Positions 1 through 27,866 of a stretch of 27,866 nt of DNA are shown in pieces. A program made the position numbers and the translations under genes. The stretch lies in the UHGV virus genome UHGV-0161508; one strand, given 5' to 3'. The notes beneath the pieces are model-generated. The model saw only the letters and a list, made by a program, of their open reading frames with translations, did no database searches and was not told the DNA's origin. Position 1 is the stretch's first letter. Each line of letters starts with the position of its first letter. The stretch is from a virus.

Positions 1-777
1 CATATCCTGAAGTTGTCCTGCTCTTTCAAGGGCCGCCTGTGACTGCTTAAACACATACTTGTCGTGATTCAGTCTTGCCATTTGAGCCTTATAGGAAAGA
101 TCCTGCCCCCTAATAGCCCTCGCATTCGTCATGTCATTATTGCGAATGGTTTCGTTAATTCTTTGCTGCTCCTGCTGGCGACCAACCATCTTATCCTGAA
201 CAGCAAACGCCTTTTCTGGCCCAAGTGCACCGAGAGACATAGTAGTCAGCATGTGTGATAGCTGCTCTGGATTCTGGATACCTGTCTGAATCATCCAGTC
301 AGCATTAGCACCAACGCGATTTAACCTGTCCTTGTTGTCAGTAATGAATTTACTGTAGGCTTCCGGTCCCTGAGAAAGAGCGACGTTAGCCCTCATGGCT
401 AAATCGCCCATATCGTTGCGTTGCTGATCATTAAGACCTGAAAACGCCTGTTGTGCCTGTGCAACAAACGCTGGATTTTCCTGGGCAAACTTAAATAGTC
501 CCGATGGATCACCAGAAGCCCATGCATCAGCATGAACCTTATTGAACGCACTAATAGCTTTCTGTTGCTGTTCCTGATTGTAAATATCAGCAACTCCAGC
601 CAGACCACGTAAGGCGGTCAGGCCAACGTTATTTGCACCTGAGCGAGCCAGTTCATTGTTTTCGCGGATCAGACCAAGCGTTGCGTTAATGTCGCTTGCC
701 TTTGGCGCATTCTCATTTTGCGTACCGATGCCAGCCAGAAAACCACCAGAATTAATACCCTGTTGCCACGTAGCCAT
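1..777 (-). CDS. Ejection (injection) protein, P22 gp20-like; N-terminal part only, gene runs off the window start
   Basis: Manual translation from ATG at 777..775 gives [17 protein letters not shown]...; frame stays open to position 1. Sits directly downstream of gp7 as in the P22 order 14-7-20-16. GGGG motif 6 nt upstream of the ATG. Confidence 0.6.
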
Positions 778-786
778 GATTACCCC

Positions 787-1479
787 TTAAAACAACGAGC
801 CAAGCAGACCAAGACCGCCGCCGATCGCAGCCCCCCACGGAGTTGATGAACCAATTAATTTCGCAAGTCCAGCCCCAGCAATAGCACCAGACGCACCTCC
901 GCCAATAGCAGATTGCATTGCTGATGGTCTGTTGGCATTTGCCGCTGCAAGAGCCGCACTTTGCTGCGAAATCTGACTCATGTTGTTGGCATATGTCTGC
1001 CCGGCGTTTGCCTGACCTTGCAGTGCGCCAAGACCAATATTTGCCAGATTCTGGTAGTTGTTCATCTGACCAGATAGCCATTGCTGACCAAGCGTTGGTG
1101 CGATTGTTGCTAACTGATTACTGGTTGCGGTGGAACCCAATCCACCTGTTGCTTCCGCTGCCGCCAGACTCTGATAGCGAGCCTGACCTGCAAGGTCTTT
1201 ATACTGCTGAGAGTTGTAATACTGGTTAAGCGCCTGACCTTGCCCTTCCAGAGACGATAAGTTCTCGAGGCTGCCGACATACTTATCAGCCAGAGGAGTA
1301 AACGGCTTCAGGTTGTTCATGATGGTGTTGAACTGCTGATTTTGCAGGTCTGCAGCATACTTCTGAGCTTCTGCTGCATACTTTGCGCTTTTATCAGAAC
1401 TGCCACCTTTCCCGCCTTTTTCAGGGCAATAAGGTTCCTCGCCGCGCAGTTTTCTGCCCAGCTTAAATGCATATAACAT
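787..1479 (-). CDS. Ejection protein, P22 gp7-like
   Basis: 230-aa ORF MLYAFKLGRKLRGEEPYCPEKGGKGG... with Gly/Ala/Gln-rich C-terminus typical of P22 gp7; position between gp14 and gp20. Confidence 0.75.
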   Translation of the reverse strand: MLYAFKLGRKLRGEEPYCPEKGGKGGSSDKSAKYAAEAQKYAADLQNQQFNTIMNNLKPFTPLADKYVGSLENLSSLEGQGQALNQYYNSQQYKDLAGQARYQSLAAAEATGGLGSTATSNQLATIAPTLGQQWLSGQMNNYQNLANIGLGALQGQANAGQTYANNMSQISQQSAALAAANANRPSAMQSAIGGGASGAIAGAGLAKLIGSSTPWGAAIGGGLGLLGSLF

Positions 1480-1481
1480 GG

Positions 1482-1937
1482 CTATCTCCCGTGATTCAGG
1501 AAGTCGATTAGTTCTTCGCGTGTGGCGCTGTAAAACGTCACGTCATCCACGCCTTTGAAGTATTTCTTGATGGTTCCTACACGCTTAAGGCCAATCATTG
1601 CGCAGTACATCTGCCCGTGGCGGAATTTGCGTGCAGCGAACGATGTGATGCACTGAACGGTGGTGTTAGTCAGAATGTATCGCCAGAACGCCAGCCCGAT
1701 TTCCTTGCTGAAGCCGCGAATCTCTGGCAGGTACATGGCGTGGCAATCGAATGTCAGCGGCTGAATCTCCTGATAGTAAACAATGCCGCCAAACTGACCG
1801 TGCACGTTAACCTCAAAGTAACGGCATTCAGGCTTGTAGTCGTATCCATCACCGTTGTTGCTTCCGGCAATAATGTCATGGTGATTTCCGACTGCTTCGA
1901 TCAGGTCGATGTTTCGCGTTGGTTTGAATGTAATCAT
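1482..1937 (-). CDS. P22 gp14-like virion/ejection-associated protein
   Basis: 151-aa ORF in the conserved slot between tail needle gp26 and gp7; tightly packed with neighbours. Confidence 0.6.
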   Translation of the reverse strand: MITFKPTRNIDLIEAVGNHHDIIAGSNNGDGYDYKPECRYFEVNVHGQFGGIVYYQEIQPLTFDCHAMYLPEIRGFSKEIGLAFWRYILTNTTVQCITSFAARKFRHGQMYCAMIGLKRVGTIKKYFKGVDDVTFYSATREELIDFLNHGR

Positions 1938-2638
1938 CAGTCAATCAGCCCATGTAATCTAAGTGCCGTTTCAAGCGCCAGAATACGCTGCCGCGCCTGC
2001 TGCAAACCTGTAGCGAGAGCCGCGACTTCGGATTGTGTGTACGTAGTGCCGACCGTGTATGACTGGTTAGCGTTGAATGAGCCAAGAAGAGGTGTACCTG
2101 TGGCTGCAGTCCATCCGGTATTTCTTGCTCCAACAACCTGAATTCCATCAACTGAATATGATGTTTTTACATCCAGCGGTGACGCAAGAGACTGCAATTT
2201 GGTTACGGTTTTCGATACGTAATCACTCTTAATGCCAGAGACATCGTTTTCTACGTCATCCAGTCTTTTGTCAACAGTGACCAGATGCGCCTGAATATCG
2301 ATAACTTCATCCAGCAAGTAATCAACATCGCTACGCAGTACGACTATCTTCCCTTCGGCGGTTGTTAACCTGACCTCAAGGAGATTTATCGCTTTTGTGT
2401 TTGCGGTGATTCTTGCATCGTGGTCAGCCAGTTCGACATCCTGTTCATCGTTTTTCACCTGAGCATCGTAAGCGCCCTGACCAGCCTGATTTGCCTTCCC
2501 GGCAATTGCGCCGACATCAGCCCCCTGATTAATGACATACAGCAGGTAAGACTGGCTGAATATATTGCGTGGAAGGATTGATGTATCGAGCCGCGTCGCC
2601 TGCACAATAACAGGGGTGTTGAGATTCGAATCAGCCAT
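1937..2638 (-). CDS. Tail needle protein, P22 gp26-like
   Basis: 233-aa [39 protein letters not shown]... matches the length and recalled sequence of P22 gp26; heptad-like coiled-coil middle. Confidence 0.8.
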
Positions 2639-4056
2639 TACTCAATCCTTATCTGGCAGCCAGACAGAGTGACAGGTGACTTTGTGATAACGCGCAATTT
2701 GAAGCCGACATTTTTCCTTATTCGCCCGACACGCTTCCACAAAACACGCTTGTCGTAAACGAACGGTTCATTCTGCTCAATCATCTGCTCACGACCGTAA
2801 TTGATGCCGTCAGTGGTTGCAGAGAGAAAAAGGCGGTCGGCGTACTGCGCAACGCCAGTTGACGATTCAACCTCAAAGTCAAACACTCTGGCGTTATCCG
2901 CTTTGAACAACGGAGTAAACAGCAGGTGTTCCTGCTGCTTGTCGTACTGGCTGCTGATATCGAACTGCAATTTCCCGGTAACAGATTCCAGCTTATCGCC
3001 GCACGTTATCTGATTGCCTTCGAAAATGAAGTCGATAGCGCGGTACACATCGTCATACAGGCCTGTTTTCAGCACACACCATTGCGGGCCATTGGCGCTT
3101 GAAGATGCGTCGTACACGAGGACGTGACGCGTAAGATGGATAATCAGCAACTCATGAGCATCAAACCGCAACGATTCCATCACGCCATCAGCCAGTTCAT
3201 CAGCAGTGTAGGAGCGGAGGATTTTCTCAATGCTCGCGCTGGCGATTGGTGACACCTGACCGGAGCCGATGATGTATACAGACGGCGCACCCGTTGCCGG
3301 ATTGCTGATGAACGCATAGGAATCAGCAAACGGCGTTTTGCAGTAAGTCCCGGCAATACCTTTCTGCACCATCAGCGATGGCTGGGCGACATACAAAGCA
3401 GCACCAACGGTGGTTGCACCAGTCAGGGAAAAATACTCAATCGTCGATGAACCAAAGCAGACGATGAAGTCTCGCCATGTTCCGATTCCGATGATGCCGT
3501 CAGGCTGCGACTCGGCACGATATTGTGCGCTGTAGCGGTCAGGATGCGATTCGTCTTCAAGGTCAGTGATAAACCATGAATCAGTACCGTCTTTTGACCA
3601 CGCATAACGCCCACGTAAGCGCGTAATGTCACGGACCGAACCTAACTCATACTGCGTGAATCCGCTGTCTGTAGGCCAGTTTGAGACGGTTTTAACCGTG
3701 CCATCATAGCGATACTCGACCAGTTGACCATTAACGCCTACTGCCTGTGATGTCCGACCATGCGCCATTGATACGCGACCACTTCCGGCAACGTCACCGA
3801 CTTCACTTTCTCCTTTGTACAGCTTGCCACCACACACACGATAAACAGCATTCTGCGCCATGTTGTACTCGACGCCTCGAGATACACCGTTCACATCAGA
3901 ACGTTTGGCAATGCCCGGGAATGAGCGAAGATATCCGCTGCTGTTGAGGATTTCTTTGGGTGTAGCCAGCATATTCACTGGCAGATAGTCGATATAGTCG
4001 GCGTTTCGAAAGTCTTTGCCGACACCTTTCATAAGCGGAAGTTGCTGAATAGGCAT
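2638..4056 (-). CDS. Tail accessory factor, P22 gp10-like
   Basis: 472-aa ORF, same length as P22 gp10; start/stop overlap with gp4 and gp26. Confidence 0.8.
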
Positions 4057-4556
4057 TATTCGCTCCCGTTATCGCAAGGTTCCTTTCGGTGGAAGTAATT
4101 CCAACCATTCCACTTCGCCAACTGGTTACCACTACCAACAGGCATACGGTTTGGATAACCGGACTTACATTTAGCGGCTTTTGCCCTATCCATTGCAGAC
4201 AGTTTGACGAGTCTCTCTTTCCCGTATCTGGCAGTGGTTATAAGTTTTGCAGACGCTTCCAGCGCATAATCCGGAGCAATGCGGCAGGCAAGGTTGAAAA
4301 TGACGGCATTGATAGCGTTATTTGATAAACCGTGTTCATCGCCAGGATCTGGAGCGACATCTGCATCAGCGAAAATGTAGCCAACGTTGATACCTGGTGA
4401 CGCATCACCGCCAAGCCATTCAGCCATCATCATTTCAAGGTCGTTAACGCCGTCTTCCATAGACTGCGGTTCGACATCGGTTAACGTGGCATTTGATGCC
4501 ACACCGAGCTTACGTAATGCCGCAAGAACTAAATCACCCTTCGTTGTCAGGTTCAT
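4056..4556 (-). CDS. Head-tail adaptor / tail accessory factor, P22 gp4-like (start moved to internal ATG)
   Basis: From internal Met: [33 protein letters not shown]..., 166 aa, resembles recalled P22 gp4. The track ORF (4056..4631) has a 25-aa N-terminal extension that overlaps the upstream small ORF. Confidence 0.7.
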
Positions 4557-4770
4557 CTGCTGCCGCCTTAGGTTTTCGACCAGGCTTTTTACGCTGTTTT
4601 TCTTCTGGCTCTGGCTCTGGCTCTGCAACATCCTTCAAAAGGTCATCAGGATGTGAAAACCAACCAGCATCCAGATATTCCTGAAGCTCTTCGGCTTTCA
4701 CGATTTCAAAGTCGTATCCAACGCCTTTCCATTTCTTCATGTCTCCATGACGAAAGATCATGTGTGTCAT
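4534..4770 (-). CDS. Hypothetical small protein (78 aa) with acidic PEPEPEE and basic KKPGRKPK tail
   Basis: ATG preceded by GGAG (about 6-nt spacer) right after the coat terminator; stop overlaps the gp4 start. No family recognised. Confidence 0.4.
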
Positions 4771-4782
4771 GCTTGTCTCCAG

Positions 4783-4806
4783 ATAAAAAAGGGAGCCGAA
4801 GCTCCC
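4783..4806 (-). terminator. Intrinsic terminator downstream of coat gene
   Basis: Minus-strand RNA GGGAGC-UUCG-GCUCCC followed by UUUUUU, 6 nt after the coat stop. Confidence 0.65.
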
Positions 4807-4811
4807 TCTGG

Positions 4812-6113
4812 TTATCGCGCAGTCTGGTTAGGCAGACCAACACCAATTGCCTCTGGTCGTACAGCACATGCTGAATACCACACAGCAATACGGCACTTGC
4901 CAGACAGAGTGTTGATATCACCCTGCGTTGCGAAGATGCCGTTAACACCAATGCCAGGAATGCTGAAGGAAGACGTTTTCATACCAGCAAACAGTTCATG
5001 GGTTACCGGGATCGGCTGAGACAGCAGGCGGATTGAGTCATCAGCCCAGAACACGTTAGCGGTGGTTGTTGCCACATTCAGAACGTTTACCGTAGCGCTC
5101 GCAGCAAGAGAGGTGTTTACATTAGCGTAAGCCTTCTCTTCTTTTGTCAGTGACTCGTCATCCAGTGCAATCGGCTTCGGCGTGATTTCGATGTGAGTAC
5201 TATCGATCACACGGGTGATTGAGAAAGTCGCATCATCAGTCAGCACGTTCTTCGCCATCTGAGACAGAAATTTCACACCAGTGAAGCTGATTTTGTCGCC
5301 GCGATTAAATCCGGCGGTGGAGGATACGGTCACCGTTGCAACACGGTTGTCGACGTTCTCTTTGTTACCATCGGTATCAAGGGTGTATGCCTGCGGCTTA
5401 AACTTATGCACTCCAGTCACAGTTACATCAGTAGCGGTTGACTTGGTAACTGCCGGAAGTTTCGGTGAGCGAAGAATTTCATCAAAGCCAGCAATCTGAC
5501 GCTGAATAGTACCGTTACGATACGCTTCTTCAGGAACGCGACCAAAGATGTCACCATCTACCAGGTTGCGGCCTGATTTGCGGTAATCGTCAGGGTTCAT
5601 GAAGTAACTGATGCCCATATCGCGGTTTAGCTCACGGGAGAACATCAGGCGCTCTGCATCAGACACAAAATCCCAGCCAGACAGGTCAGTAGATGATGGA
5701 CCAATTGCGCGGGTATCGTGAACAACAAGCGAGCCCATTTCAGTTGCCTGTTTGGCAATCGCTGACTCAATGTTATTCGCCAGTTTTCTGGCGGATGCCT
5801 GGATGCGGCGACGGTAAGAACGCTCATCACGCAGGTCATCTGCACGAAGCTCGAAGAAATCGTTATCCGGATCGCCCATGTTGCATTTCACGGAGAGTTC
5901 CAGAATCCCGCTTGCCTTGCCAGTTAAATCCCAGCCAGTCTGAGTTGGCGCTTCCTGCTCAACAGGCATCCACACGGTGTTGCTTGAACGCTGCATGGAT
6001 TCTGCCGGAGGGGTGTATTTTGTCACTTTGGACGCCATTGGCGTCAGGTTCTGGACGGTTTCGATGATTTCATCGATAGCGTAAGTAACTAACTGCCCTT
6101 CTTTTAATGCCAT
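4812..6113 (-). CDS. Major coat protein, P22 gp5-like
   Basis: 433-aa [57 protein letters not shown]... closely resembles recalled P22 coat; TAATG overlap with scaffold stop. Confidence 0.9.
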
Positions 6114-7024
6114 TATCGAATTCCTTTATTCAGTTGCGCCTTGAGCTTGCGGTATGTCTCTACATCCCCTTTGTTTGCTGCCGCTTCCATCTGCTTTTCA
6201 ATCGCAGAGATATTTGCAGCAACAGCGTGTCCCTGAATGGGTTCATCAGGTAACGGGGCTTCTGAAACAGGCTTGGCTCGAGGCTTGAGAGTTAAACGTT
6301 CTGACAGTCGAGTGAGTTCAATCAGCGCGGATTGCCCGTCCATCGCCAGCAACTGGCGTGTTTTCTCAGGATTAGCACCAAGGTGATACATGAGAGCAGC
6401 GGATTTCTCCGGGAAGAGGCGCATGATGTCGGCACCGACTGCTGGCGGCACCAGTTGCATGAATGCATCCTCTTTCTCCTGATAGTCAGGGATATTGAGC
6501 TTTTCCGCTGCGTCGTAGTGCTTACGGGCTGCCTCGACGTATTGCGCTGATTGCTGGGTGAACTCCTGAGTTTTGCGCCCCTGCTCGGCGACAGCCTGGC
6601 TTCGTGCGTCCATAGCCTTGATCTGCCATTCACTGTTTGCCTGCTGGAAGGCAGCCAGTGCTCGGCTCTGGTCATAGTCGTACTTAGCCAGTGCGTCTTC
6701 GGAAAGATAATCGTTAGGGTCTGGTTGTTTTGGTAACTCAGGGTTCACCCGCAGGTGCTCCGGCAACTCTCCACGCTTAACCGCTTCCATCTGCTGCTCA
6801 AGCTCACGCTGGCGTTTGCGTTCGATGCGGCGACGGGCAAATTCAGCATTAGTTGCCGGGTCTTGTTTTGGTTTCTCATCGTCTTTCAGGACAATCTCGA
6901 AGCCTTCTTCCTGACCTGCGATGTCGTTGGCATTATCGACAACTAAGCCATCAGCAGATGCCGCTGCATGATTGCCGGGCAGGGTTAATTCTTCAGAAGC
7001 CTGAATGTCGGTGGTTTGGTCCAT
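6113..7024 (-). CDS. Scaffolding protein, P22 gp8-like
   Basis: 303 aa, highly charged helical protein between portal and coat; same length as P22 gp8. Confidence 0.85.
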
Positions 7025-7037
7025 GGTTAACTCTCTC

Positions 7038-18979: not shown

Positions 18980-18993
18980 AGACTCGCTCCGAA

Positions 18994-19733: not shown

Positions 19734-19775
19734 TTTCCTTTAAAAATCAAAGCCAAACTTAAGTTACGAAAGAAA

Positions 19776-19829: not shown

Positions 19830-19874
19830 TAAGCCATCAGCAGGACGCTGGTAGCCAAACGGAACAGATTGGCA

Positions 19875-19917: not shown

Positions 19918-20274
19918 CTGAGTTTAACCAAACAGGAGGTGCCGTAATGGTGCACTAACGCGGTTAGACCGCAGCCGAAAGGCAATGCAGCAGTAATGAT
20001 GCTGCCCCGAGTCGCGTAATGGCGAGCAGGTTTAGCAGACCGATGTGAGGGTAAATAAGGGAACATGCTCCGGAAAGGCAGCGCGAATGCCAGACGCGCA
20101 CCGGTTATCAGCGGCTAATAAGCGACAGAGACTCAAGGGCATGAGCGCGCTCACTGCGAGAGTGTGAGTCAAAGAGTAGTTGGCTTTGGGGTGACGTGAA
20201 GTGCAGCTGCACGCCGGCAGCCGGAAGATAAGCACCCGGCGCGTCACCGCCAAAGTCAATCATCGGAGGTCAAC

Positions 20275-20574
20275 ATGACAGTAGTCATTACATATCTGGC
20301 TGACGATAACGCCAGAAATCGCCGCAGAGCACGCAGACAGGCTCAACGTGAACAGGCAATGCAAGAGCAGCGACTGGCGCGAAAAATTGCGCTAAAGCTC
20401 TCTGGTTGCGTCAGAGCAGATAAAGCAGCATCACTCGGAAGCCTTCGCTGCAAGAAGGCAGAAGAAGTCGAGCGTAAACAGAACCGTATTTACTACCGCA
20501 AGCCACGCAGTGAAATGGGTGTGACTTGTGTTGGTCGCCAGAAAATGAAATTAGGCAGCAAACCACTTATTTGA
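20275..20574 (+). CDS. N: Antitermination protein N (arginine-rich-motif family, not P22 gp24-type)
   Basis: 99 aa; N-terminal arginine-rich motif DNARNRRRARRQAQREQ; first gene after pL/nutL; GGAGG 5 nt before the ATG. Confidence 0.8.
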   Translation: MTVVITYLADDNARNRRRARRQAQREQAMQEQRLARKIALKLSGCVRADKAASLGSLRCKKAEEVERKQNRIYYRKPRSEMGVTCVGRQKMKLGSKPLI

Positions 20575-20582
20575 GGTGAGAT

Positions 20583-21053
20583 ATGACAAAATCATGGATC
20601 GTACCTTTTCCTGAATCAGAAACTGAACATGATGGAATGCCTGTTTTCTGGAGATTCCAGGCGACAGTTGAAGAAGATGGAATCAAAATATTCGCACTTC
20701 AATATATAGCTTTTCATCAGACAGAGCATTATGCATGGTTGGTTCCTGCGCATTGGATTGTTAATTTTAAACCAGCACCAAATCAGTGGTTACAGGAATG
20801 GAAACAAAAGAGAAATAGATATGCAATTAAGAAAGTAGCAAAAAATGCAGAAAGATCTTTTGCATTCCCAACGAAGAAACTTGCCATTGAAAGTTTATTG
20901 CGCCGGAAGAAATACCATTTAATGAGAATCAAACAAGATTTGGCTGTTGTATCAACTCTTGTTGATGGGATGAAGAATATTGATACATCAACACCAGATA
21001 TTGAATATAACTTTGGACACAACCAAGAAACAGAAAACTGGGTGTTTTATTAG
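20583..21053 (+). CDS. Hypothetical protein (156 aa), AT-rich moron between N and cIII
   Basis: ORF MTKSWIVPFPESETEHDGMPVFWRFQATVEEDG...; GGTGAG 4 nt before the ATG; visibly lower G+C than flanking genes; followed by a hairpin and a terminator. No family recognised. Confidence 0.6.
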   Translation: MTKSWIVPFPESETEHDGMPVFWRFQATVEEDGIKIFALQYIAFHQTEHYAWLVPAHWIVNFKPAPNQWLQEWKQKRNRYAIKKVAKNAERSFAFPTKKLAIESLLRRKKYHLMRIKQDLAVVSTLVDGMKNIDTSTPDIEYNFGHNQETENWVFY

Positions 21054-21067
21054 TACGAATAAGCACT

Positions 21068-21095
21068 GTGTATTCATTCCAACGAGTGAATACAC
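21068..21095 (+). promoter_or_regulatory. Perfect 9-bp inverted repeat (GTGTATTCA-N10-TGAATACAC) downstream of the moron
   Basis: Seen directly; not followed by a U-tract, so more likely an RNA processing or protein-binding element than a terminator. Confidence 0.4.
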
Positions 21096-21157
21096 GGAGC
21101 AATGTCGCTCGTAACTAAACAGGAGCCGACTTGTTCTGATTATTGGAAATCTTCTTT

Positions 21158-21181
21158 GCCCTCCAGTGTGAGGGCTTTTTT
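21158..21181 (+). terminator. Intrinsic terminator (tL1-like) between moron and cIII
   Basis: GCCCTC-CAGTGT-GAGGGC followed by TTTTTT. Confidence 0.75.
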
Positions 21182-21247
21182 ATATGCATACCAATAACGC
21201 TTCACTTGAGGCGTTTTCGTTATGCAATCAAATATAAGGAGTTACCC

Positions 21248-21382
21248 ATGATGCATTTTCAGCTCGCGGGTAGCGGCGTCATGTCCGCTTTCTACCCGCA
21301 CGAATCTGAATTATCACGCCGAGTTAAACAATTAATCAGAGCAGCAAAGAAACAACTGGAGGCGTTATGCGCAATGAAATAG
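21248..21382 (+). CDS. cIII: CIII-like protein (FtsH inhibitor, stabiliser of CII); start trimmed
   Basis: MMHFQLAGSGVMSAFYPHESELSRRVKQLIRAAKKQLEALCAMK, 44 aa; central ESELSRRVKQLIRAAKKQL resembles the lambda CIII amphipathic helix ESLLERITRKLRDGWKRL; AAGGAG 6 nt upstream. The track ORF starts upstream of the terminator. Confidence 0.65.
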   Translation: MMHFQLAGSGVMSAFYPHESELSRRVKQLIRAAKKQLEALCAMK

Positions 21383-21519
21383 CCATCAATCACCAGATGC
21401 TTCGTGCTGCACAGAACAAAGCAGTAATAGCCAGATTTATTGGTGATTCAAAAATGTGGCTTGAAGCAAATAAAGCGATGAAATCAGCTATCAACCTTCC
21501 GTGGTATCGCAGGAAATGA
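21367..21519 (+). CDS. kil: Kil-like small protein (putative host cell-division inhibitor)
   Basis: 50 aa MRNEIAINHQMLRAAQNKAVIARFIGDSKMWLEANKAMKSAINLPWYRRK; GGAGG 4 nt upstream; sits right after cIII as kil does in lambda/P22. Homology rests on my recollection of an ...ATFIGDEKM... motif in Kil and on position only. Confidence 0.4.
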   Translation: MRNEIAINHQMLRAAQNKAVIARFIGDSKMWLEANKAMKSAINLPWYRRK

Positions 21520-21600
21520 GTTTTACAGATAACTGGTCAGACGAAGAATTCATTCGTCAGATGAAAGAAATGCTCAATCAGCACAAAGAACAGGAGAAAG

Positions 21601-21912
21601 ATGATGATTCTGACTCTGAAAGATGAGCGTGAAATATCGCAAATAATCGCAAGTTTTACTGATGAAGATTACGAACGAATCAAAAGTGAAGTTGATCGCC
21701 TCTGCAAACGGTGCGACCCAATAAGCGAAATGCTTCGCTCATATAAACCAGATGAACACACTAAGGACGCTATCGACTGGCTGGAAGATTATGACTGTAA
21801 CTATCAGGAAAAAGCCGCTGAATGGTTCTGGGATGCAATAACCGAAAGAGTTAAGGCTGAATATGCCTTCGCAATATTCAAACGCAGACATATTTATGGA
21901 GAAGCTGCATGA
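21601..21912 (+). CDS. Hypothetical acidic protein (103 aa) upstream of recT
   Basis: ORF with AGGAGAAAG before the ATGATG start; stop overlaps the recT ATG (ATGA). No family recognised. Confidence 0.55.
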   Translation: MMILTLKDEREISQIIASFTDEDYERIKSEVDRLCKRCDPISEMLRSYKPDEHTKDAIDWLEDYDCNYQEKAAEWFWDAITERVKAEYAFAIFKRRHIYGEAA

Positions 21913-22820
21913 GCAATATCGTTGAATTCGTTAAACAGCAAGAGCAGTTATTCTGCGGAGCATTGACTGAACAGACGGTGACATGGGCTAAGGAAAGCCA
22001 GTTTGCAATTCAGTATTTCCAGAAAAATGATTACCTGGCTAAAACGGCACTGGCAAATCCAACCAGCGCACAGAACGCCATCATCAATGTTGCGGCGATC
22101 GGCATCACCTTAAACCCGGCCAGCAAACTGGCTTATCTGGTTCCTCGCGACGGCATGGTGTGCCTTGATATCAGTTATATGGGATTGCTCCATATTGCAA
22201 TGGAGTCTGGTGTTATCTCATGGGGTCAGGCAAAACTTGTTCATGCTAACGATACCTATGAGTCAAACGGGCTTGATAAAGCACCAACCCATAAATACAA
22301 CGCCTTCGGTGATCGTGGTGATATCGTTGGCGTTTACTGCACAGTTAAGACGCCAGCAGGTGATTATCTAACGGAAGAGATGAGTCTGGCTGAAATTGAG
22401 GCTGTAAGGAAAACAAGCAAGGCGGCATTCAGCGATAAAGGACCATGGGTAAATCACTGGAATGAGATGGCGCGAAAGACGGTCGTAAAGCGTGCAAGCA
22501 AGTATTGGCCTAAGGCATCACGTCTTGATAGTGCTATTCACGTACTAAACGAAGAAGAAGGTGTGTGGACTGAACCAGTTATGCCGCACAAATCAGAGGA
22601 AGATATCCGCGAAGATGAACGGAAACGCCAGCAGGAAATAACGGATAAAGCACAACTTCTTTGTGATGAAATGGCTCAGGCTGAAAACATGGATGATTTG
22701 AAGCGATATTTTGCAGAAGCATATCGCCTGACATCTGGAATGAAATTGCAGCAGAACGTACAAGCCATTTACGCAGAATGCAAAGCGAAACTGGAGGTTG
22801 CCAGTGAGCAAACTATATGA
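21909..22820 (+). CDS. recT: RecT-family single-strand annealing recombinase
   Basis: 303 aa; C-terminal segment GPWVNHWNEMARKTVVKRASKYWP parallels the Rac RecT motif GPWVTHWEEMAKKTAIRRLFKYLP. Confidence 0.85.
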   Translation: MSNIVEFVKQQEQLFCGALTEQTVTWAKESQFAIQYFQKNDYLAKTALANPTSAQNAIINVAAIGITLNPASKLAYLVPRDGMVCLDISYMGLLHIAMESGVISWGQAKLVHANDTYESNGLDKAPTHKYNAFGDRGDIVGVYCTVKTPAGDYLTEEMSLAEIEAVRKTSKAAFSDKGPWVNHWNEMARKTVVKRASKYWPKASRLDSAIHVLNEEEGVWTEPVMPHKSEEDIREDERKRQQEITDKAQLLCDEMAQAENMDDLKRYFAEAYRLTSGMKLQQNVQAIYAECKAKLEVASEQTI

Positions 22821-23286
22821 AATTGCCAATGAATACGCAAAATTGATGGATTCAGATTTAGAACCAGAGATGATTGCTGACACAATAGAAGGCATGGAAG
22901 GAGAATTTACCGATAAAATAGAGCAACTTCTTGCCATTATTAAAAATGAATCTGGTTATGCTGAACGCCTCAAGGAAGAGGCAAAGTCACTGAATGAGCG
23001 AGCCGCAGTAATTCAAAATAAGATTGAGAGCATCAAATCATATATAGCGTCATCGCTTGAAATGGTTGGCAAGAAAAAGATTCGAGCAGGTATTCACCAG
23101 GTAACAATCCGCAAACCGTCAGAAACTGTAGAAATCATCGACTCAAGCGCCCTTCCTCCTGAATACGTTGAGTTTGAAACGACAATTAAAGCCGACAAAC
23201 TGGCAATCAAACACCAACTAAAAGCAGGAATAAATATCCCCGGCGCTCAACTCAAAGTTGGGAAACCTTCACTTCTTATCAAATAA
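22804..23286 (+). CDS. Gp157-like (Sipho_Gp157 family) recombination-module protein, tentative
   Basis: About 160 aa, helical, immediately after recT. Start chosen at GTG 22804 (GGAGG 6 nt upstream); the track starts at TTG 22798. Family call is from memory of the pattern and context. Confidence 0.45.
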   Translation: MSKLYEIANEYAKLMDSDLEPEMIADTIEGMEGEFTDKIEQLLAIIKNESGYAERLKEEAKSLNERAAVIQNKIESIKSYIASSLEMVGKKKIRAGIHQVTIRKPSETVEIIDSSALPPEYVEFETTIKADKLAIKHQLKAGINIPGAQLKVGKPSLLIK

Positions 23287-23297
23287 CGGTATCGACT

Positions 23298-23612
23298 ATG
23301 AAAAAGACTCCATGGGAGAAATGGGAAGTCGATTTCTTGCGCGAGGTAGCGGCGACAATGCCAGTTGAAGTTATCGCTGAAAAACTGGAAAGGACTGAAA
23401 AAGCAGTAATGGCGAAAGCAACAAGGATTGGCGCTGACATTGTTAGCCGACTTCGTGGAAGACGATGGACAAGAGCCGAAGTATCACTTTTCGGTAAGTT
23501 CTCCGCAGAAGAAATAGCAATTGCAACCTGCCGCTCAATTTATTCAGTAAGAGCTATGCGATACAAGCTAAAAAAACTCGATGAAGAAAGAGCAGGCATA
23601 CGAATAAATTAA
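23298..23612 (+). CDS. Hypothetical protein with two tandem W-x2-E...L...IA..L.RT..AV repeats (possible tandem HTH/Myb-like fold)
   Basis: 104-aa ORF; repeat units MKKTPWEKWEVDFLREVAATMPVEVIAEKLERTEKAV and RRWTRAEVSLFGKFSAEEIAIATCRSIYSVRAMRYKL. Confidence 0.5.
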   Translation: MKKTPWEKWEVDFLREVAATMPVEVIAEKLERTEKAVMAKATRIGADIVSRLRGRRWTRAEVSLFGKFSAEEIAIATCRSIYSVRAMRYKLKKLDEERAGIRIN

Positions 23613-23628
23613 CATGGAGTAATTAACA

Positions 23629-23910
23629 ATGAAGCTAAACATCGACCTTGGAAAATACGTTATTACCGGAACCAAACACGACCTGATTCTTAGTGAAAGA
23701 GGAATTATCAAAGAAGGCGAGAATGCAGGGAAAGAAACACTAAGTCGTATCGGTTATTACAGCAAGTTTGAGCATCTGGTTAAAGAGTTATGCAACCGTG
23801 AAATCCTGTTATCTCAGGCGCAGACACTACAGGATATTCAGCAGCATATCGAGACTTTAGGTGTATCACTTAGCACGGCTGTTGACCAGTTCGCGGAGAG
23901 TAAATCATGA
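23629..23910 (+). CDS. Hypothetical protein (93 aa)
   Basis: ORF with stop overlapping the next small ORF (ATGA); no family recognised. Confidence 0.5.
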
Positions 23911-24074
23911 GAGGACTTGCATACAATCCCGGCATTCTTCCGGCAGAAATGATTATTCGCCAACGCGTAAAGCCAATGCCATCGAGAGAGGAATTGCTTA
24001 AGAGAAATTCTTTTCCATCAGTGAATCAAAACAAATATCTGAATTCGATGTGGCGCAAAGGAGGCAAGCAGTGA
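23907..24074 (+). CDS. Hypothetical small protein (55 aa)
   Basis: Manual translation [55 protein letters not shown]; GGAGAG 6 nt upstream; translationally coupled on both sides. Confidence 0.3.
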
Positions 24075-24325
24075 GTAATTCCGCACGACTACAGCTTGGT
24101 TTTTCACCGCTATCAAAAACTATCATGCTGGCAAAAATGCGCGATGTTGAAGGTGGACGTATGCGCGTTGGCAATGATCCAGGTCGTGATGTTACCAATG
24201 AGGCTGCTCAATTGGTGTGGCGACTGGTCATGGCTGAAGGTGGTGAGATCGCGTGGGAACTTGATGATGGTTCTCGCATGGTGTTGAAGGCAGAGAAGCA
24301 GGAGGCAACCAGTGAGCAAGATTGA
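24071..24325 (+). CDS. Hypothetical protein (about 84 aa; start at GTG)
   Basis: AAGGAGG 6 nt before GTG 24071; the track ORF starts at ATG 24050, which lacks an RBS. Confidence 0.4.
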
Positions 24326-24935
24326 TTATCAAAAGCTTCGTGAAATCGCTGAAAAAACAAAAATTGCTGGTGAAGCACCTGTAATGCCTTTCGATCAGCG
24401 AATTAATGCGCTTAACGATTTTATGAAGCACTTTTCGCCAGATATCGCGCTGGCATTGCTGGATGAACGTGAAAGAAACCAGCAATACATCAAATCCCGC
24501 GACCAGGAGAACGAGGAAATTGCGCTAACGGTAGGGAAGCTGCGTGTTGAGCTGGAAGCAGCAGATAACAACCTTATTGATAGTGAATGCCATGTTGCTG
24601 AACTGGAAGAAGCGCTACGCGATAAGCAGGCATTACTTGAAGCCTCAGAAAAGCGCATTGCAGAACTTGAAGCACGGGAAATAAAACCAGCCAAAGGCGA
24701 AGTTCTTGTCGTTGTATCTGGTTTTACTGGTTGCGGAAAAAGCGCCATTGCCGGGGAAATAGAAATCGCGATGAAGGCTATTGGTGTACCGGTTCAGTGG
24801 ACTAATGGCGATGCGGAAAAGCGCATGACAGGAGCTGACTGGCTGACAGCGATTGAGATGTACAAACCAACAGTGCGCATCGTGGAAGTTAATGTGCCAC
24901 GCGCCGCAGGCATTCGCATCAAAGAGGGTGAGTAG
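24312..24935 (+). CDS. Ead/Ea22-like protein (coiled-coil early-region protein), tentative
   Basis: 207 aa; N-terminal [17 protein letters not shown]..., central ERERNQQYIKSRDQENEEIA and coiled-coil ELEEALRDKQALLEASEKRIAELEAR are typical of the Ea22 family in lambdoid early-left regions. Confidence 0.55.
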   Translation: MSKIDYQKLREIAEKTKIAGEAPVMPFDQRINALNDFMKHFSPDIALALLDERERNQQYIKSRDQENEEIALTVGKLRVELEAADNNLIDSECHVAELEEALRDKQALLEASEKRIAELEAREIKPAKGEVLVVVSGFTGCGKSAIAGEIEIAMKAIGVPVQWTNGDAEKRMTGADWLTAIEMYKPTVRIVEVNVPRAAGIRIKEGE

Positions 24936-25107
24936 TGCGTGTGGCATGTATCGGCTTGTTACCGTACCCGACTCGTTTTTGGGCTTCTGCGCTAATTGCA
25001 AAGCCACATGTCCTGATGGCTGACAACATCATCCCGGCACCAAAGCGCCGCCATACCGGTATTGCAGCGGCACGACGAGCAGCAAAGAGACGCAGGAGAG
25101 CAAAGCG

Positions 25108-25284
25108 ATGAAAAACCGTAAGGCAAAACGACTTTTTTTACAGCGACCTGTGCGTGTGGTGGAGCTGGTTATTAGCAACCATAAGATAGCGGTACTCCAT
25201 CCATTTGGTCAGGTGGCTTTTGCCGCAAAGCGTAAGCCTACTGCGTCACAGAACAGGCGGAAGAAAGGGTACGCTGTAAGATGA
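25108..25284 (+). CDS. Hypothetical small basic protein (58 aa), paralogue 1 of a tandem pair
   Basis: Manual translation MKNRKAKRLFLQRPVRVVELVISNHKIAVLHPFGQVAFAAKRKPTASQNRRKKGYAVR; AGGAGAG 7 nt upstream; stop overlaps the next ATG. Confidence 0.35.
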   Translation: MKNRKAKRLFLQRPVRVVELVISNHKIAVLHPFGQVAFAAKRKPTASQNRRKKGYAVR

Positions 25285-25469
25285 AAAACCGTAAAGCAAA
25301 GATTCTGTTAGTTCGTAGAAACGCTCCTGGCGTCTGGCAGTGGGTGAGACTCAGCAACCGACGGATGGGGTTGATGAAATATTACGGGATGATGGATTGT
25401 GGTTTTTGCAAAAAGCCCAGCGCGGCGCAAAACCGCTGGAAAAACCACTTGCGCACTAAAGGAGAGTGA
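25281..25469 (+). CDS. Hypothetical small basic protein (62 aa), paralogue 2 of a tandem pair
   Basis: MKNRKAKILLVRRNAPGVWQWVRLSNRRMGLMKYYGMMDCGFCKKPSAAQNRWKNHLRTKGE; shares the MKNRKAK-L-L--R N-terminus with the upstream ORF. Confidence 0.45.
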   Translation: MKNRKAKILLVRRNAPGVWQWVRLSNRRMGLMKYYGMMDCGFCKKPSAAQNRWKNHLRTKGE

Positions 25470-25470
25470 T

Positions 25471-25698
25471 ATGGCTAACTCATTACTTGAAACCTGCAAC
25501 AACTGGCAGATTCAGAGGGCGGAGATTTTATCTCGCAATCCAGATATGGCAATGACAATTGACAATCTGGATACGCTAATTGAGCGAACCGTGCGCTCTG
25601 CAATTGATATAGCACATCGAGTGGATTGGGATTTCAGAGAAGCGGAGCGACTTGCTAAAGAGCAGGCGAAAGCATCGGGTAAAGGAGAGGCATCATGA
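25471..25698 (+). CDS. Hypothetical protein (75 aa; start trimmed to RBS-supported ATG)
   Basis: AAGGAGAG 5 nt before ATG 25471; MANSLLETCNNWQIQRAEILSRNPDMAMTIDNLDTLIERTV...; the track ORF starts 24 codons earlier inside the previous gene. Confidence 0.45.
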   Translation: MANSLLETCNNWQIQRAEILSRNPDMAMTIDNLDTLIERTVRSAIDIAHRVDWDFREAERLAKEQAKASGKGEAS

Positions 25699-26720
25699 AA
25701 ACTTTCACTATTGACTGGCTCAACAAATGCCGCTGCGGGAATAAATCACACACGGTCAAAACAGCTCGCGGAAATGAAACCGCCTTGTGGGATGACGATG
25801 CCGTTAAGTGCAACTCCTGCGGTCGTGGCGGAGTCATTCAAGTCTGTGAGGGGCAGGCGCGAGTTTTATGGGAAACCGATGAAGAGATGGCGGATGGAAA
25901 ACCCATGACCACTATAACCAAAGAGCGACTACTGACAATCAAGCAGTGGCGCGAAACATACGGACCTGATAGCAACGTTGTACTGCCAGCAGAAGAAGCG
26001 GAAGAACTGGCACGAATTGCTCTGGCATCACTGGAAGCAGAACCAGTTGCTTATATTTTCAAACATCCGGCCGGGAAATTATTCTGGGCTTTAACGGATG
26101 AAAGCAATAAAGAGCAAGCGGACGTTATTCCTGTTTATGCTGCCGCGCCTGCGTCGGTTGTGCCGGATGATGCATCAGGGGCGCTTGCTTATGCTTACAA
26201 AGAGCTTACGCCTGAGATTATGCGCGGTCATATCGCTGTATTCGAGCGATATGGAATAGCCCCAAACGATAGCATTACCACAATTCAGGCACTGCGAATC
26301 GCGCTGGATGGCATAGAGCGGAGCGACGCCATGCTTCATGGTGCCGAAACTGTAAGCCAAACTTACAAGTTGCCTCCCCTGTCATCCAGCGAAGTAAACG
26401 ACGCGGCATGGAAATTACACAACATGCTGACTGAACACGGCCTGCTAAATGGGCGTCAGTTCAACAATCTGAAAGGTTGCTTCTATGAGGCATTAAAGGT
26501 CGCAATGCGCAACTATCCGGCAACTCCGGATAGTTGGATAAGCTGTAGTGAGCGAATGCCGGATAAGTTAATTCCGGTAATGGTCATGTATGAAGACGGT
26601 GAGATGTGGTCTGCAATGTGGAATGGCAATCGCTGGGATGATGGCACCGAATACCCGGATCCGCACTCAGTTACGCACTGGCGTGAAATGCCAGCAGCAC
26701 CGCAGCAGGAGGTGAAGTGA
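25695..26720 (+). CDS. DUF551-domain protein with N-terminal Cys-rich (zinc-ribbon-like) region
   Basis: 341 aa; N-terminus CRCGNKSH...CNSCGRGG; C-terminus WISCSERMPDKLIPVMVMYEDGEMWSAMWNGNRWDDG...VTHWREMP fits the DUF551 pattern common in lambdoid ea regions. Confidence 0.6.
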   Translation: MKTFTIDWLNKCRCGNKSHTVKTARGNETALWDDDAVKCNSCGRGGVIQVCEGQARVLWETDEEMADGKPMTTITKERLLTIKQWRETYGPDSNVVLPAEEAEELARIALASLEAEPVAYIFKHPAGKLFWALTDESNKEQADVIPVYAAAPASVVPDDASGALAYAYKELTPEIMRGHIAVFERYGIAPNDSITTIQALRIALDGIERSDAMLHGAETVSQTYKLPPLSSSEVNDAAWKLHNMLTEHGLLNGRQFNNLKGCFYEALKVAMRNYPATPDSWISCSERMPDKLIPVMVMYEDGEMWSAMWNGNRWDDGTEYPDPHSVTHWREMPAAPQQEVK

Positions 26721-27004
26721 TGGACTCCTTCGCGAAATATACGATTATTGACTGGATAGCATTCCTTCAGGTTTTGCTCATCTGGTTTTATATGGCTTAC
26801 AGGAGTGGGCAGTGGATTGTCAGTGTAGCCTGTAGCAAGGGATGGCGTTGGTGGAACAGAAAGAATAAAAAAGCACTGGCATTGGATTCGTTTTACGAAG
26901 CATTCAATCTTAACAGCCTTCAGCCTGGTTCTGTCATTGTAGTCACCACTCAAAGCGGCATGACGATACAAATTCACAAGCCAAAGGAGGAAGGTCGTGG
27001 CTAA
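26717..27004 (+). CDS. Hypothetical protein with N-terminal hydrophobic segment (95 aa)
   Basis: ORF with hydrophobic stretch IIDWIAFLQVLLIWFYMAY; translationally coupled to both flanking genes. Confidence 0.45.
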   Translation: MMDSFAKYTIIDWIAFLQVLLIWFYMAYRSGQWIVSVACSKGWRWWNRKNKKALALDSFYEAFNLNSLQPGSVIVVTTQSGMTIQIHKPKEEGRG

Positions 27005-27281
27005 CCTGCAACTTGCCGTCAAAGGTGAATACTTCGATGCCATGATTCGCGGGGAGAAAACGGAAGAGTATCGCCTGTGCAATGACTACTGGAATAAGCG
27101 AATTATGTTCCGGGAATATGACCGTCTGATTATCACAAAGGGATATCCGAAGCGCGACGATTCCAGCCGTAGAATTGACGTCCCGTATGACGGGTATGAA
27201 ATCAAGACAATCATACATCCACACTTCGGTGATAAACCGGTAAAGGTGTTCGCGATAAAGGTGAATATCGGCAATGAATAA
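26997..27281 (+). CDS. ASCH/PUA-like domain protein, tentative
   Basis: 94 aa; N-terminal LQLAVKGEYFDAMIRGEKTEEYR resembles the ASCH beta-strand motif (..F..I..G.K..E.R). Confidence 0.45.
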   Translation: MANLQLAVKGEYFDAMIRGEKTEEYRLCNDYWNKRIMFREYDRLIITKGYPKRDDSSRRIDVPYDGYEIKTIIHPHFGDKPVKVFAIKVNIGNE

Positions 27282-27284
27282 CAT

Positions 27285-27310
27285 CCTCGCACTCGCGGGG
27301 ATTTCTTTTA
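27285..27310 (+). terminator. Intrinsic terminator-like hairpin after the ASCH-like gene
   Basis: CCTCGC-ACTC-GCGGGG (one G.U) followed by ATTTCTTTTAT. Confidence 0.45.
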
Positions 27311-27352
27311 TCTGAACTCGCTACGGCGGGTTTTGTTTTATGGAGATGATAA

Positions 27353-27520
27353 ATGCACTTCCGAGTCACTGGTGAATGGAATGGAGAGCCATTCGACAGG
27401 GTTATCGAAGCAGAGGACATCAACGACTGCTATAACCACTGGATGATATGGGCGCAGATAGCGCATGCAGACGTAACCAATATTCGAATTGAAGAACTGA
27501 AAGAACACCAAGACGCCTGA
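27353..27520 (+). CDS. Hypothetical small protein (55 aa)
   Basis: Manual translation MHFRVTGEWNGEPFDRVIEAEDINDCYNHWMIWAQIAHADVTNIRIEELKEHQDA; GGAGA 7 nt upstream. Confidence 0.3.
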   Translation: MHFRVTGEWNGEPFDRVIEAEDINDCYNHWMIWAQIAHADVTNIRIEELKEHQDA

Positions 27521-27577
27521 TGGCGGTTTTTTATTGCCTGATTTGCAGGTTCGATTCCCTATTCGGAGATAGCACTC

Positions 27578-27778
27578 ATGCAACACGAACTACAGCCTGA
27601 TTCACTGGTTGATTTGAAATTCATCATGGCCGATACTGGCTTTGGTAAAACCTTCATCTATGACCGGATTAAGTCCGGCGACCTTCCTAAAGCCAAAGTT
27701 ATCCACGGACGAGCAAGATGGTTATATCGTGACCATTGTGAATTTAAAAATAAGCTCTTAAGCCGCGCCAATGGGTAA
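27578..27778 (+). CDS. xis: Excisionase / AlpA-family DNA-binding protein
   Basis: 66 aa; LVDLKFIMADTGFGKTFIYDRIKSGDLPKAKVIHGRARWLYRDHCEFKNKLL fits the AlpA/Xis winged-helix pattern; lies at the distal end of the pL operon where xis-int is expected. Confidence 0.7.
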   Translation: MQHELQPDSLVDLKFIMADTGFGKTFIYDRIKSGDLPKAKVIHGRARWLYRDHCEFKNKLLSRANG

Positions 27779-27866
27779 AATAGCGGGTAAAATATTTCTC
27801 ACATCTAAAAAACACCATTCCAATCAATCCCCTGCCGCTTCAAGTAGATGTCTGCAGGGGACACCA

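Follow-up and report, generated by a model that had tools for sequence, protein, structure and literature searches.

P22-like phages have highly mosaic early operons, and several of them have genes for late antitermination with 99% identity to lambda Q (PMC2629481). The sequence described here, virus genome UHGV-0161508, belongs to this background. It is 27,866 nt long, and is referred to below as the window, meaning the whole stretch of DNA that was analysed. It is one more well-resolved case of textbook mosaicism, and as such changes nothing conceptually; its use lies in a base-resolution map of the seams, including intragenic seams in TerL, Rz, N and O. More important than the mosaic itself are two small inserts: an HNH endonuclease cassette at the 3' end of cII, and a structured-RNA element upstream of N.

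CUS-3, a K1-specific P22-like prophage of E. coli RS218, has the same C2 and Cro (100% amino acid identity), a 99% identical N, a lambda-type cII, the same Rha-Rz-R-S block (97.8% nucleotide identity), a similar gp10-gp20 block (93.9%) and a like integrase and attachment context. It differs in its own third procapsid type (coat protein 27% identical), a 21-type Q, other replication genes and Erf in place of RecT, and it is without the HNH cassette and the RNA element. IME10, which is the best overall phage match, has the same procapsid (95-99% amino acid identity), C2 and Cro (100%), N, Q, S, R, Rz and O/P, but differs in the centre of TerS (where it has no P22-identical pac segment), in its P22 c1/HK620-type cII, and in its recombination genes, gp20 and gp7. 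It also has no HNH cassette.

P22 itself shares the late gene order, the immC type, TerS with pac, the N-terminal part of TerL, Q, the late leader, the holin type and the C-terminal part of Rz, but most of its virion genes are only 59-85% identical in amino acid sequence, and it has its own lysozyme gp19, c1, gene 24 and boxB, replication genes 18 and 12, and Erf/Abc. Lambda shares cII and pRE (97% nucleotide identity), oop (93%), Q with pR'/qut (96%), S and R (92%; 98% amino acid identity) and short boundary segments at tR2 and tL2. Its virion, immunity, replication and recombination genes are dissimilar, and its oop overlaps the 3' end of the working cII. HK620 has the same ejection and head-completion block, nutL, nutR, N arginine-rich motif (ARM), ninH-Q and P, and Sf6 has the same replication module, S, R and Rz, with boundary sequences at the same junctions; these two phages differ in having Sf6-type procapsid genes and other immunity regions. 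Finally, vB_EcoP-683R2 combines a lambda-type cII with the same RecT module.

Source and module map

Comparisons of source and coverage were made with the first 25 kb of the window. These are 100% identical to the chromosome of E. coli W46 (NZ_CP163115, 3508925-3533924), which is the only one of 5,426 complete E. coli genomes to cover at least 80% of them; the runner-up covers 78% at 96.8% identity. Such coverage is reached by none of 50,697 phage genome records. The top phage matches are E. coli members of Lederbergvirus, namely IME10 (70% coverage, 96.4% identity), Dewey, HZ41 and Louie, while P22 covers 53% at 83% identity. Since the best phage matches are Lederbergvirus records, the window represents the core of a P22-like temperate phage. 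The locus in W46 is a prophage adjoining tRNA-Arg, with an IntS-type integrase, a tailspike with a head-binding domain, and ant, arc and mnt; gp16, ant/arc/mnt and the tailspike come after gp20 in the W46 record, outside the window. No tRNA or tmRNA was found in the window using ARAGORN. The right and late operons lie on the minus strand and the left operon on the plus strand. It is very probable that the window is the central part, from the ejection genes to the early-left accessory genes, of a temperate P22-like (Lederbergvirus-type) prophage made mosaic by exchange of lambdoid modules.

The window was compared by BLASTN and TBLASTN with lambda (J02459), P22 (AF217253), HK620 (AF335538), 933W, CUS-3 (CP000711), IME10 (JF974339) and Sf6 (AF547987), and identity was followed in 200-bp and 30-bp steps. 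The resulting segments are listed in Table 1, together with genes and sites. A first-pass annotation, made from the sequence alone, had described the window as a modular mosaic, and this is borne out: the affiliation switches sharply at least 20 times in 27.9 kb. Chance is not at issue, because the switches drop from more than 95% identity to undetectable similarity within tens of bases. Many of the seams fall on stretches that the Sf6 and CUS-3 records annotate as boundary sequences, and frames are unbroken across the intragenic junctions in TerL, Rz, N and cII. Module affiliations, junction positions and intact reading frames are all directly observed, and no evidence contradicting the mosaic was found.

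Table 1. Segments of similarity, annotated boundary sequences, and genes and sites of the window (aa, amino acid identity; nt, nucleotide identity; ORF, open reading frame)
Feature	Position	Strand	Remarks
gp20', gp7, gp14, gp26, gp10	1-4061		closest HK620, 95.9%
gp4, coat, scaffold, portal, TerL C-part	4056-9780		IME10 94-99%; P22 only ~70-78%
TerL N-part, TerS, DUF2560	9780-11890		P22 93-100%
Rha, Rz, R, S	11242-13997		CUS-3 97.8%
Rz part, R, S	12798-13997		lambda 92.4%
Q, ninH, rusA'	14125-15240		HK620 96.8%
pR', Q	14160-14893		lambda 96.3%, IME10 97.8%, P22 88%
P, O, small ORF	15334-17892		Sf6 and IME10 98.8%
oop region	17860-17954		lambda 38693-38602, 92.6%
HNH insert	17955-18429		475 bp; HNH gene and replacement cII C-terminus; boundary 18429/18430; no match in the seven references
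cII	18430-18702		lambda 38615-38343, 97.1% over 273 bp
cII, cro, c2, OL, nutL	18430-19918		CUS-3 99.3%
nutR	18683-18786		HK620 9424-9527 (holds annotated nutR), 100%
cro, c2, OL	18773-19892		P22 84.5%
N-leader element	19919-20169		no match in the seven references
N	20170-20585		CUS-3, HK620, IME10, 96-99%
L0079-like gene	20521-21186		933W 98.4%
kil	21365-21569		CUS-3, Sf6, IME10, 99%
RecT module	21570-23625		no match in the seven references
ea-type genes	beyond 23625		patchy matches
Sf6 bsq7 (Sf6 37312-37359)	12930-12977		at Rz junction
CUS-3 bsq3			holds seam at 13997
Sf6 bsq6	~15323-15403
Sf6 bsq5	17860-17892
CUS-3 bsq5			holds c2-to-N region
Sf6 bsq4	21063-21181
gp20 (partial)	1-777	-	HK620/CUS-3-type sub-block
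gp7	787-1479	-	HK620/CUS-3-type sub-block
gp14	1482-1937	-	HK620/CUS-3-type sub-block
gp26	1937-2638	-	HK620/CUS-3-type sub-block
gp10	2638-4056	-	HK620/CUS-3-type sub-block
gp4	4056-4556	-	58.8% aa to P22
small ORF	4534-4770	-
coat gp5	4812-6113	-	70.8% aa to P22
scaffold gp8	6113-7024	-	84.9% aa to P22
portal gp1	7038-9203	-	77.6% aa to P22
TerL gp2	9204-10703	-	92.4% aa to P22 overall; internal junction ~9780
TerS gp3	10681-11169	-	100% aa, identical to P22 gp3
DUF2560 gene	11249-11491	-
Rha/ORF11CD3 regulator	11719-12261	-	100% aa to CUS-3 product; Pfam Phage_pRha, ORF11CD3
50-aa ORF	12469-12621	-
Rz spanin	12609-13046	-	first ~32 codons lambda-type, rest P22 gene 15-type; seam ~12940
R endolysin	13043-13519	-	98.1% aa to lambda
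S holin	13503-13826	-	98.1% aa to lambda; P22 gp13 89.6%
tR'-like terminator	14127-14155	-	after short late leader
pR' and qut	~14160-14217	-	promoter region common to lambda and P22, 96% to lambda, equally close to P22
Q	14260-14883	-	aa: lambda Q 99.5%, IME10 100%, P22 gp23 96.1%
ninH	14880-15068	-
rusA, 5'-truncated	15065-15241	-	partial per PGAP
tR2-like terminator	15351-15374	-	within boundary segment 15334-15404
P, DnaB-type helicase	15403-16839	-
O initiator	16829-17719	-	HK620 similarity stops at 17239, inside O
53-aa ORF	17706-17867	-
oop-like antisense gene	17878-17954	+	terminator 17924-17954; over lambda-type cII 3' remnant
HNH (His-Me finger) endonuclease gene	17953-18381	-	142 aa
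cII	18392-18685	-	residues 1-85 lambda-type, last 12 replaced; pRE at 5' end
nutR boxB	18743-18762	-	TTCCCGCCGAAATGCGGGAA
nutR boxA	18777-18786	-	GCTCTTTAAC
cro	18794-18979	-	95.1% aa to P22 Cro; 100% to CUS-3 and IME10
OR1-OR3	18994-19059		18-bp operators, P22 form ANTNAAGNNNNCTTNANT
c2	19060-19710	+	92.1% aa (199/216) to P22 C2; 100% to CUS-3 and IME10
OL operators	19776-19828		at least 2 sites
pL-like promoter	19801-19829	+
nutL boxA	19876-19885	+
nutL boxB	19899-19916	+
structured-RNA element	19919-20175	+	~257 nt, between nutL boxB and N-leader hairpin
Shine-Dalgarno of element	19934-19939	+
mini-ORF of element	19947-19958	+	ATG GTG CAC TAA
conserved 3' block of element	20131-20166	+
N-leader hairpin	20177-20260	+	compensatory changes
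N gene	20275-20574	+	99% identical to CUS-3 and IME10 N
933W L0079-like gene	20583-21053	+	98.7% aa to 933W L0079
tL2-like terminators	21158-21215	+
cIII	21248-21382	+	Pfam cIII
kil	21367-21519	+	Pfam Lambda_Kil
102-aa ORF	21604-	+	start of recombination module, 21604-23612
RecT	21909-22820	+	Pfam PF03837, E = 2.7e-32, 112 bits (cutoff 24)
Gp157/Mu Gam-like protein	22804-23286	+	Pfam Sipho_Gp157
D5-like regulator fragment	23298-23612	+	module annotations from PHROG
ea-type accessory genes	23629-27866	+	DUF5405, DUF2737, DUF7446, Ead/Ea22, others, up to xis-proximal end

The late genes follow the P22 order 3-2-1-8-5-4-10-26-14-7-20, with amino acid identities of 59-100%. The packaging, head and ejection genes had been called P22-type as a whole. 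This is right for their type and gene order, and for TerS and pac, but near-identity to P22 is limited to 9780-11890, and the rest is IME10- or HK620-like. The virion block consists of three sub-blocks, with seams at the gp10/gp4 gene border and within TerL near codon 308. Block 1-4061 is 93.9% identical to CUS-3 and 78-84% to P22 at the nucleotide level, and its proteins are 92-99.6% identical to those of HK620; the HK620 similarity ends at 4061, which is the gp10/gp4 gene border. The procapsid genes in 4056-9780 are of P22 type and IME10 subtype (95-99% amino acid identity to IME10), with no nucleotide match to HK620, Sf6 or CUS-3. Within TerL, identity to P22 rises from 63-83% to 93-100% at 9780-9840. 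IME10 has the same TerL seam but a different TerS centre (57-77% nucleotide identity over 10870-11050; TerS 82% amino acid identity). Gene 3 of the window contains, at 10881-10902, an exact copy of the 22-bp P22 pac sequence GAAGATTTATCTGAAGTCGTTA, which was verified by its presence as a single copy in gene 3 of P22. The sequence therefore predicts headful packaging that starts at a pac site within the small terminase gene.

Cro, c2 and the 18-bp operators were correctly assigned to the P22 type. The nucleotide identity to P22 over immC (18794-19710) is 84.5%, residues 16-53 of C2, which span the helix-turn-helix, are identical to P22, and OR1 is likewise identical, with OR2 and OR3 one base off each. 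A scan with the P22 operator pattern gave five sites, all of them at OR or OL, compared to 1.1 expected. The immunity would thus be of the P22 immC type. The suggestion that cII and pRE are lambda-like was also confirmed: the TTGC-N6-TTGC motif is present at the start of the cII gene itself, and the first 60 codons plus the upstream 17 bp are nearly identical to lambda at the nucleotide level. CII matches lambda at 87 of 97 residues (89.7%), with the differences mostly in the C-terminal 12 residues, and is 56% identical to P22 c1.

N was described as having a different type of ARM with its own boxB, and so it has. Its ARM (NARNRRRARRQAQREQ) is that of HK620, and nutL and nutR both have the boxA GCTCTTTAAC and an identical boxB hairpin (TCCCGCCGAAATGCGGGA); in the alignment to P22 at nutL, likeness runs through boxA and stops before boxB. 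The locus encodes a small basic protein with an N-terminal ARM, and has boxA/boxB after both pL and pR. N is chimeric, in that residues 1-56, including the ARM, are those of HK620 N, with a seam near 20466. The C-terminal third resembles N of lambda and Sf6 (57-61% over that part), and HK620, 933W and P22 share another C-terminus. The middle and C-terminal part presumably also resemble the N of phage 21. Against the Pfam N_peptide model N scores 20.2 bits, below the cutoff of 27.9.

Q, pR', S and R had all been called lambda-like. For Q and pR' this is accurate as far as it goes, but P22 has them in the same type, and the late leader and its terminator are of P22 type: a lambda-family Q lies directly before pR' with qut, and from about +25 the leader follows P22, with its short leader and terminator, and not the 194-nt 6S region of lambda. 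The late-leader region (14000-14160) has lambda-like sequence on either side, giving two further seams between Q and S; lambda likeness returns about 170 bp upstream of S. S and R are indeed close to lambda, but the holin type of S is shared with P22. Because P22 has a lambda-type Q, the same pR'/qut and a lambda-type holin, these parts do not set the window apart from P22, and only R (which has no homologue in P22) and cII are truly non-P22 among the lambda-like parts. The sharp junction proposed inside Rz was found: identity to lambda is 97-100% from 12950 upwards and 70-87% below, and identity to P22 is 87-100% over 12620-12950.

Beyond rusA, the segment 15334-15404 is conserved, with 94-97% identity to lambda, P22 and 933W, and corresponds to Sf6 bsq6. 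In the nin region, 2153 bp of HK620 (from ninB to the 5' part of rus) are gone, with 81 bp in their place; the remnant resembles a natural nin deletion. In the left operon, 21063-21186 is common to lambda, Sf6 (bsq4), CUS-3 and HK620. RecT was expected to replace the P22 Erf, and it does occupy the erf position of P22, with kil on one side and the ea genes on the other. Over 21520-23640, the RecT module has 99.6% nucleotide identity to vB_EcoP-683R2 and 97-98% to HK140, mEpX1, Kapi1 and Gally. The ea-type genes match Sf6, 933W, CUS-3, IME10, HK620 and lambda patchily. Here the window has a 1193-bp deletion relative to the W46 RefSeq sequence (L003, 36049-37241). The join, at 26015-26048, is a 34-bp repeat encoding an ...IALASLEAE... 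motif in two paralogous ea genes, and the deletion yields a fusion ORF of 341 amino acids (25695-26720) with a DUF551 C-terminus.

Predicted working and alternative explanations

The mosaic would have been built by module exchange between co-infecting or resident lambdoid phages, mostly at short intergenic boundary sequences and sometimes within genes at domain borders. By homology, P22-type C2 and Cro would act on the 18-bp operators at OR and OL, N (with an HK620-type ARM and a lambda-type C-terminal part) would bind its own boxB in nutL and nutR, and the lambda-type CII would activate pRE. Q, of a type common to lambda and P22, would act at pR'/qut and read through the short P22-type leader. 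Lysis would use the lambda S holin, the lambda R transglycosylase and a chimeric Rz/Rz1, while DNA would be packaged by the headful mechanism from the P22 pac site by the P22-identical TerS. Replication is expected to depend on the Sf6/HK620-type O and the DnaB-type helicase, and recombination on RecT and the Gam-like protein instead of Erf. Viability of the prophage is an inference, as is the assumption that the modules have kept the specificities of their models. Some features argue against a fully functional phage, namely the truncated rusA, the loss of most of the nin region, the fusion of an ea gene relative to W46, and an oop promoter whose -35 region is in non-lambda sequence. As for immunity, C2 differs from P22 C2 at 17 of 216 residues.

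A rival reading is that of a decaying, defective prophage, whose patchwork arose partly by deletions and by recombination in situ with resident prophages. The truncated rusA and the loss of about 2.1 kb of nin relative to HK620 would fit such decay, as would the 1193-bp deletion between the paralogous ea motifs, and the four places in the W46 chromosome that match the first 25 kb could have served as recombination partners. However, nin genes are dispensable in lambda, as in the nin5 deletion. Moreover, every P22 gene for morphogenesis, lysis, replication and regulation in the window is a full-length ORF, 59-100% identical to a functional homologue, and most of the junctions are also found in plaque-forming phages. 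We therefore regard a defective prophage as improbable.

It is much less probable again that the window is simply a phage that has already been described. IME10 comes closest in coverage (70% of the first 25 kb at 96.4%), and CUS-3 has identical C2 and Cro, a 99% identical N, and a lambda-type cII and S/R. But no phage genome reaches 80% coverage, the only E. coli genome to do so is the source itself, and the HNH cassette is in no phage record. The first-pass annotation had proposed a new combination. No single phage matches the whole window, so that this is literally true, but the same module pairings occur in CUS-3, IME10 and vB_EcoP-683R2. All of the modules and most of the junctions already occur in sequenced P22-like phages: immC and N in CUS-3 and IME10, the head genes, Q, S and R in IME10, replication in Sf6, RecT in vB_EcoP-683R2, HK140 and mEpX1, L0079 in 933W, and the N-leader element in mEp213. 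Only the full combination is unique among the 5,426 complete E. coli genomes and 50,697 phage records, as is expected for the group.

Assembly chimeras among prophages of the same genome are a negligible explanation: four matching places in W46 are the kind of setting in which short-read assemblies collapse, but the source chromosome is closed, the same junction positions are found in independently sequenced phages and at Sf6/CUS-3 boundary sequences, and frames continue across the TerL, Rz, N and cII junctions. It is concluded that the mosaic is real but normal for lambdoid and P22-like phages, and that only the HNH insert and the RNA insert are unusual.

The structured-RNA element upstream of N

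The element is an insert of 251 bp (19919-20169) relative to HK620 and CUS-3. It is also present in mEp213 (98.4%), two Stx2c phages (89.7%), Hafnia yong1 (83%) and Providencia PSTCR7lys (87%), and an alignment of five sequences already showed compensatory changes. A scan of IMG/VR for the conserved 3' block (GGGCATGNGCGCGNNCACTGCGAGAGTGTG) found it in at least 120 contigs; among the matches listed there were 92 different cores, 222-276 nt long, the least similar pairs of which are 44% identical.

Covariation was assessed in 30 aligned, diverse copies. The consensus fold has 41 pairs in 9 helices. In the named structure 98.4% of cells are paired, compared to 27-40% when the partner is slid by 1-3 columns. 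Cells changed on both sides number 153, against 9-26 in the slid controls, and the covariation score is 0.393, against 0.02-0.08. In 500 shuffles, not one of these values was attained. G-U pairs that never vary assign the structure to the plus strand, the strand of the pL transcript. The single-sequence fold of the N leader is unremarkable (z = -1.5), and the structure is evident only from the comparative alignment.

Almost every copy opens with a Shine-Dalgarno sequence and an ATG, followed by 0-3 further codons and a stop, and the peptide is not conserved. A coding element was considered and rejected, as no ORF is conserved beyond this mini-ORF of 1-4 codons and the strand is set by the G-U pairs. 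A separate small RNA with a terminator at its end was also rejected, because no terminator lies within 110 nt of 82 of the 91 distinct copies; since most copies lack a following terminator, the element is part of long transcripts. No link was found to the prophage small RNAs Pas, STnc100, AgvB and AsxR, or to the elements in a 2026 preprint on mining of non-coding RNA. Rfam 15 gave no relevant match for the whole window at E <= 1, and the element alone gave only chance-level scores of 10-13 bits at E <= 10.

The element occurs in 113 of the 5,426 E. coli genomes, and is annotated neither in these 113 nor in phage records. Its locations are of three kinds. One is the early-left operon, where it lies downstream of the repressor gene and, in the window, right behind pL and nutL. 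In mEp237 and Klebsiella RothC it comes immediately after Q and pR', and in phiKO2 and several contigs it adjoins the lysis genes. It was not found in lambda, P22, HK620, 933W (first 50 kb), CUS-3, IME10 or Sf6 using an nhmmer profile of the element, which is about 260 positions long. Many copies (for example those of L107, L108, L111 and L129) are followed by a further conserved hairpin, CATTACAG...GATAATG, and others, including that of the window, by a long hairpin, CTTTGGGGTG...CACCNCCAAAG; the element may thus have alternative 3' extensions. HNH-type genes, putatively for homing endonucleases, follow the RNA element in Klebsiella RothC and in contigs L131 and L077.

The position after antitermination sites, together with the mini-ORF, suggests, as speculation, that the element is a ribosome-loading or transcript-shielding leader, or else a host-factor decoy. 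The element might accordingly block Rho, recruit ribosomes, or sequester a host protein. What makes it of interest is that a covarying RNA without a database name occurs in many prophages at sites tied to antitermination, where it can be tested directly by deletion and RNA analysis.

The HNH cassette at the cII-oop overlap

In lambda, pairing of oop with cII triggers cleavage by RNase III and lowers CII. The first-pass annotation noted a sharp junction at the 3' end of cII. There is a break at 18429/18430, but it is not a plain module junction: it is one edge of the 475-bp HNH insertion. In the alignment of the window with lambda and CUS-3, lambda likeness ends at ...AATAAAAAACGCCCGGCGG, inside the oop terminator hairpin, and restarts 475 bp on at AATAAAACGCCCGGTGTGCAAGACCGAGCGTTCTGAAC...; after the restart it runs past the stop codon of the old cII end and reaches the beginning of the gene that follows. 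The replacement C-terminus of cII reads ...RPADIFAENQLTMNF, where lambda has ...RPAATERSEQIQMEF. The protein encoded by the cassette matches the Pfam model HNH_3 (PF13392) at 28.9 bits (cutoff 24.8), and zf-His_Me_endon at a sub-threshold 20.1 bits. It matches PHROG HNH endonuclease families down to E = 3e-28, but has no relative of solved structure by sequence and no NCBIfam model. Its stop codon abuts the U-tract of the oop terminator, which has been kept.

oop had been listed among the lambda-like parts. Its sequence is (92.6%), but the cassette has displaced it from cII. The HNH gene now separates the oop segment from the cII stop, which is 440 bp away, and the segment is complementary to a non-coding remnant, so that it is not antisense to the 3' end of the working cII as in the lambda module. 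The working cII end has only about 17 of its last 38 nt in common with this remnant, so that pairing between oop and the cII coding sequence is lost. The partner of oop would now be the 3' untranslated region of the HNH gene, and the control of CII by RNase III and oop would be displaced or lost here. The locus is in effect a natural experiment, in which antisense oop has been separated from the cII frame that it normally overlaps.

The cassette is in none of the 50,697 phage records, and in 6 of the 5,426 E. coli genomes, each time directly after cII. Strains M160133 and EC11 have a repressor gene, cro, N and replication genes unlike those of the window. M160133 shares just 17904-18454 with the window (a core of 551 bp, 99.5% identical), within another cII allele and other flanking modules. 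Relatives of the HNH protein in metagenome assemblies, with 83% and 71% amino acid identity, are encoded 8-10 nt after a Phage_CII gene, and behind both there is an oop-type hairpin with compensatory changes and a cII-like 3' remnant. The cassette thus shows presence/absence polymorphism at a fixed site and transfer between unrelated alleles, both of which are marks of a homing element. In L014, a T5orf172/MUG113 gene (3516-4121), a putative homing endonuclease, directly follows a cII-associated HNH gene, and a gene in L141 (2982-3521) is among further putative homing endonuclease genes that adjoin the two inserts in other genomes. A literature search for an HNH endonuclease at cII/oop gave no paper in which all the terms occur together.

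The cassette is rare and appears to be mobile, and its distribution is what would be expected of a free-standing homing endonuclease gene that resides where cII and oop overlap. Under homing, the empty cII-oop allele of lambda or CUS-3 would be cut near AAACGCCCGG/CGGCAACCGAGCG, and the duplicated target end within the cassette would keep both cII and oop intact. As for the two inserts, we lean slightly towards the view that 19919-20175 belongs to an undescribed but widespread class of structured RNA of Enterobacterales temperate phages, located in antiterminated operons and acting on the transcript or on a host factor in lytic growth, and, separately, that the HNH cassette is a homing element specialised on the cII-oop overlap that uncouples oop from cII.

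The seg and mob homing genes of T-even phages offer a comparison for the cassette. They too are small inter- or intragenic endonuclease ORFs, present or absent among near-identical alleles, and they are also alike in that the target is altered in the copy that carries the gene and that short flanks are transferred along with it. Unlike them, the cassette in the window carries a duplicate 3' end of the gene that it interrupts.

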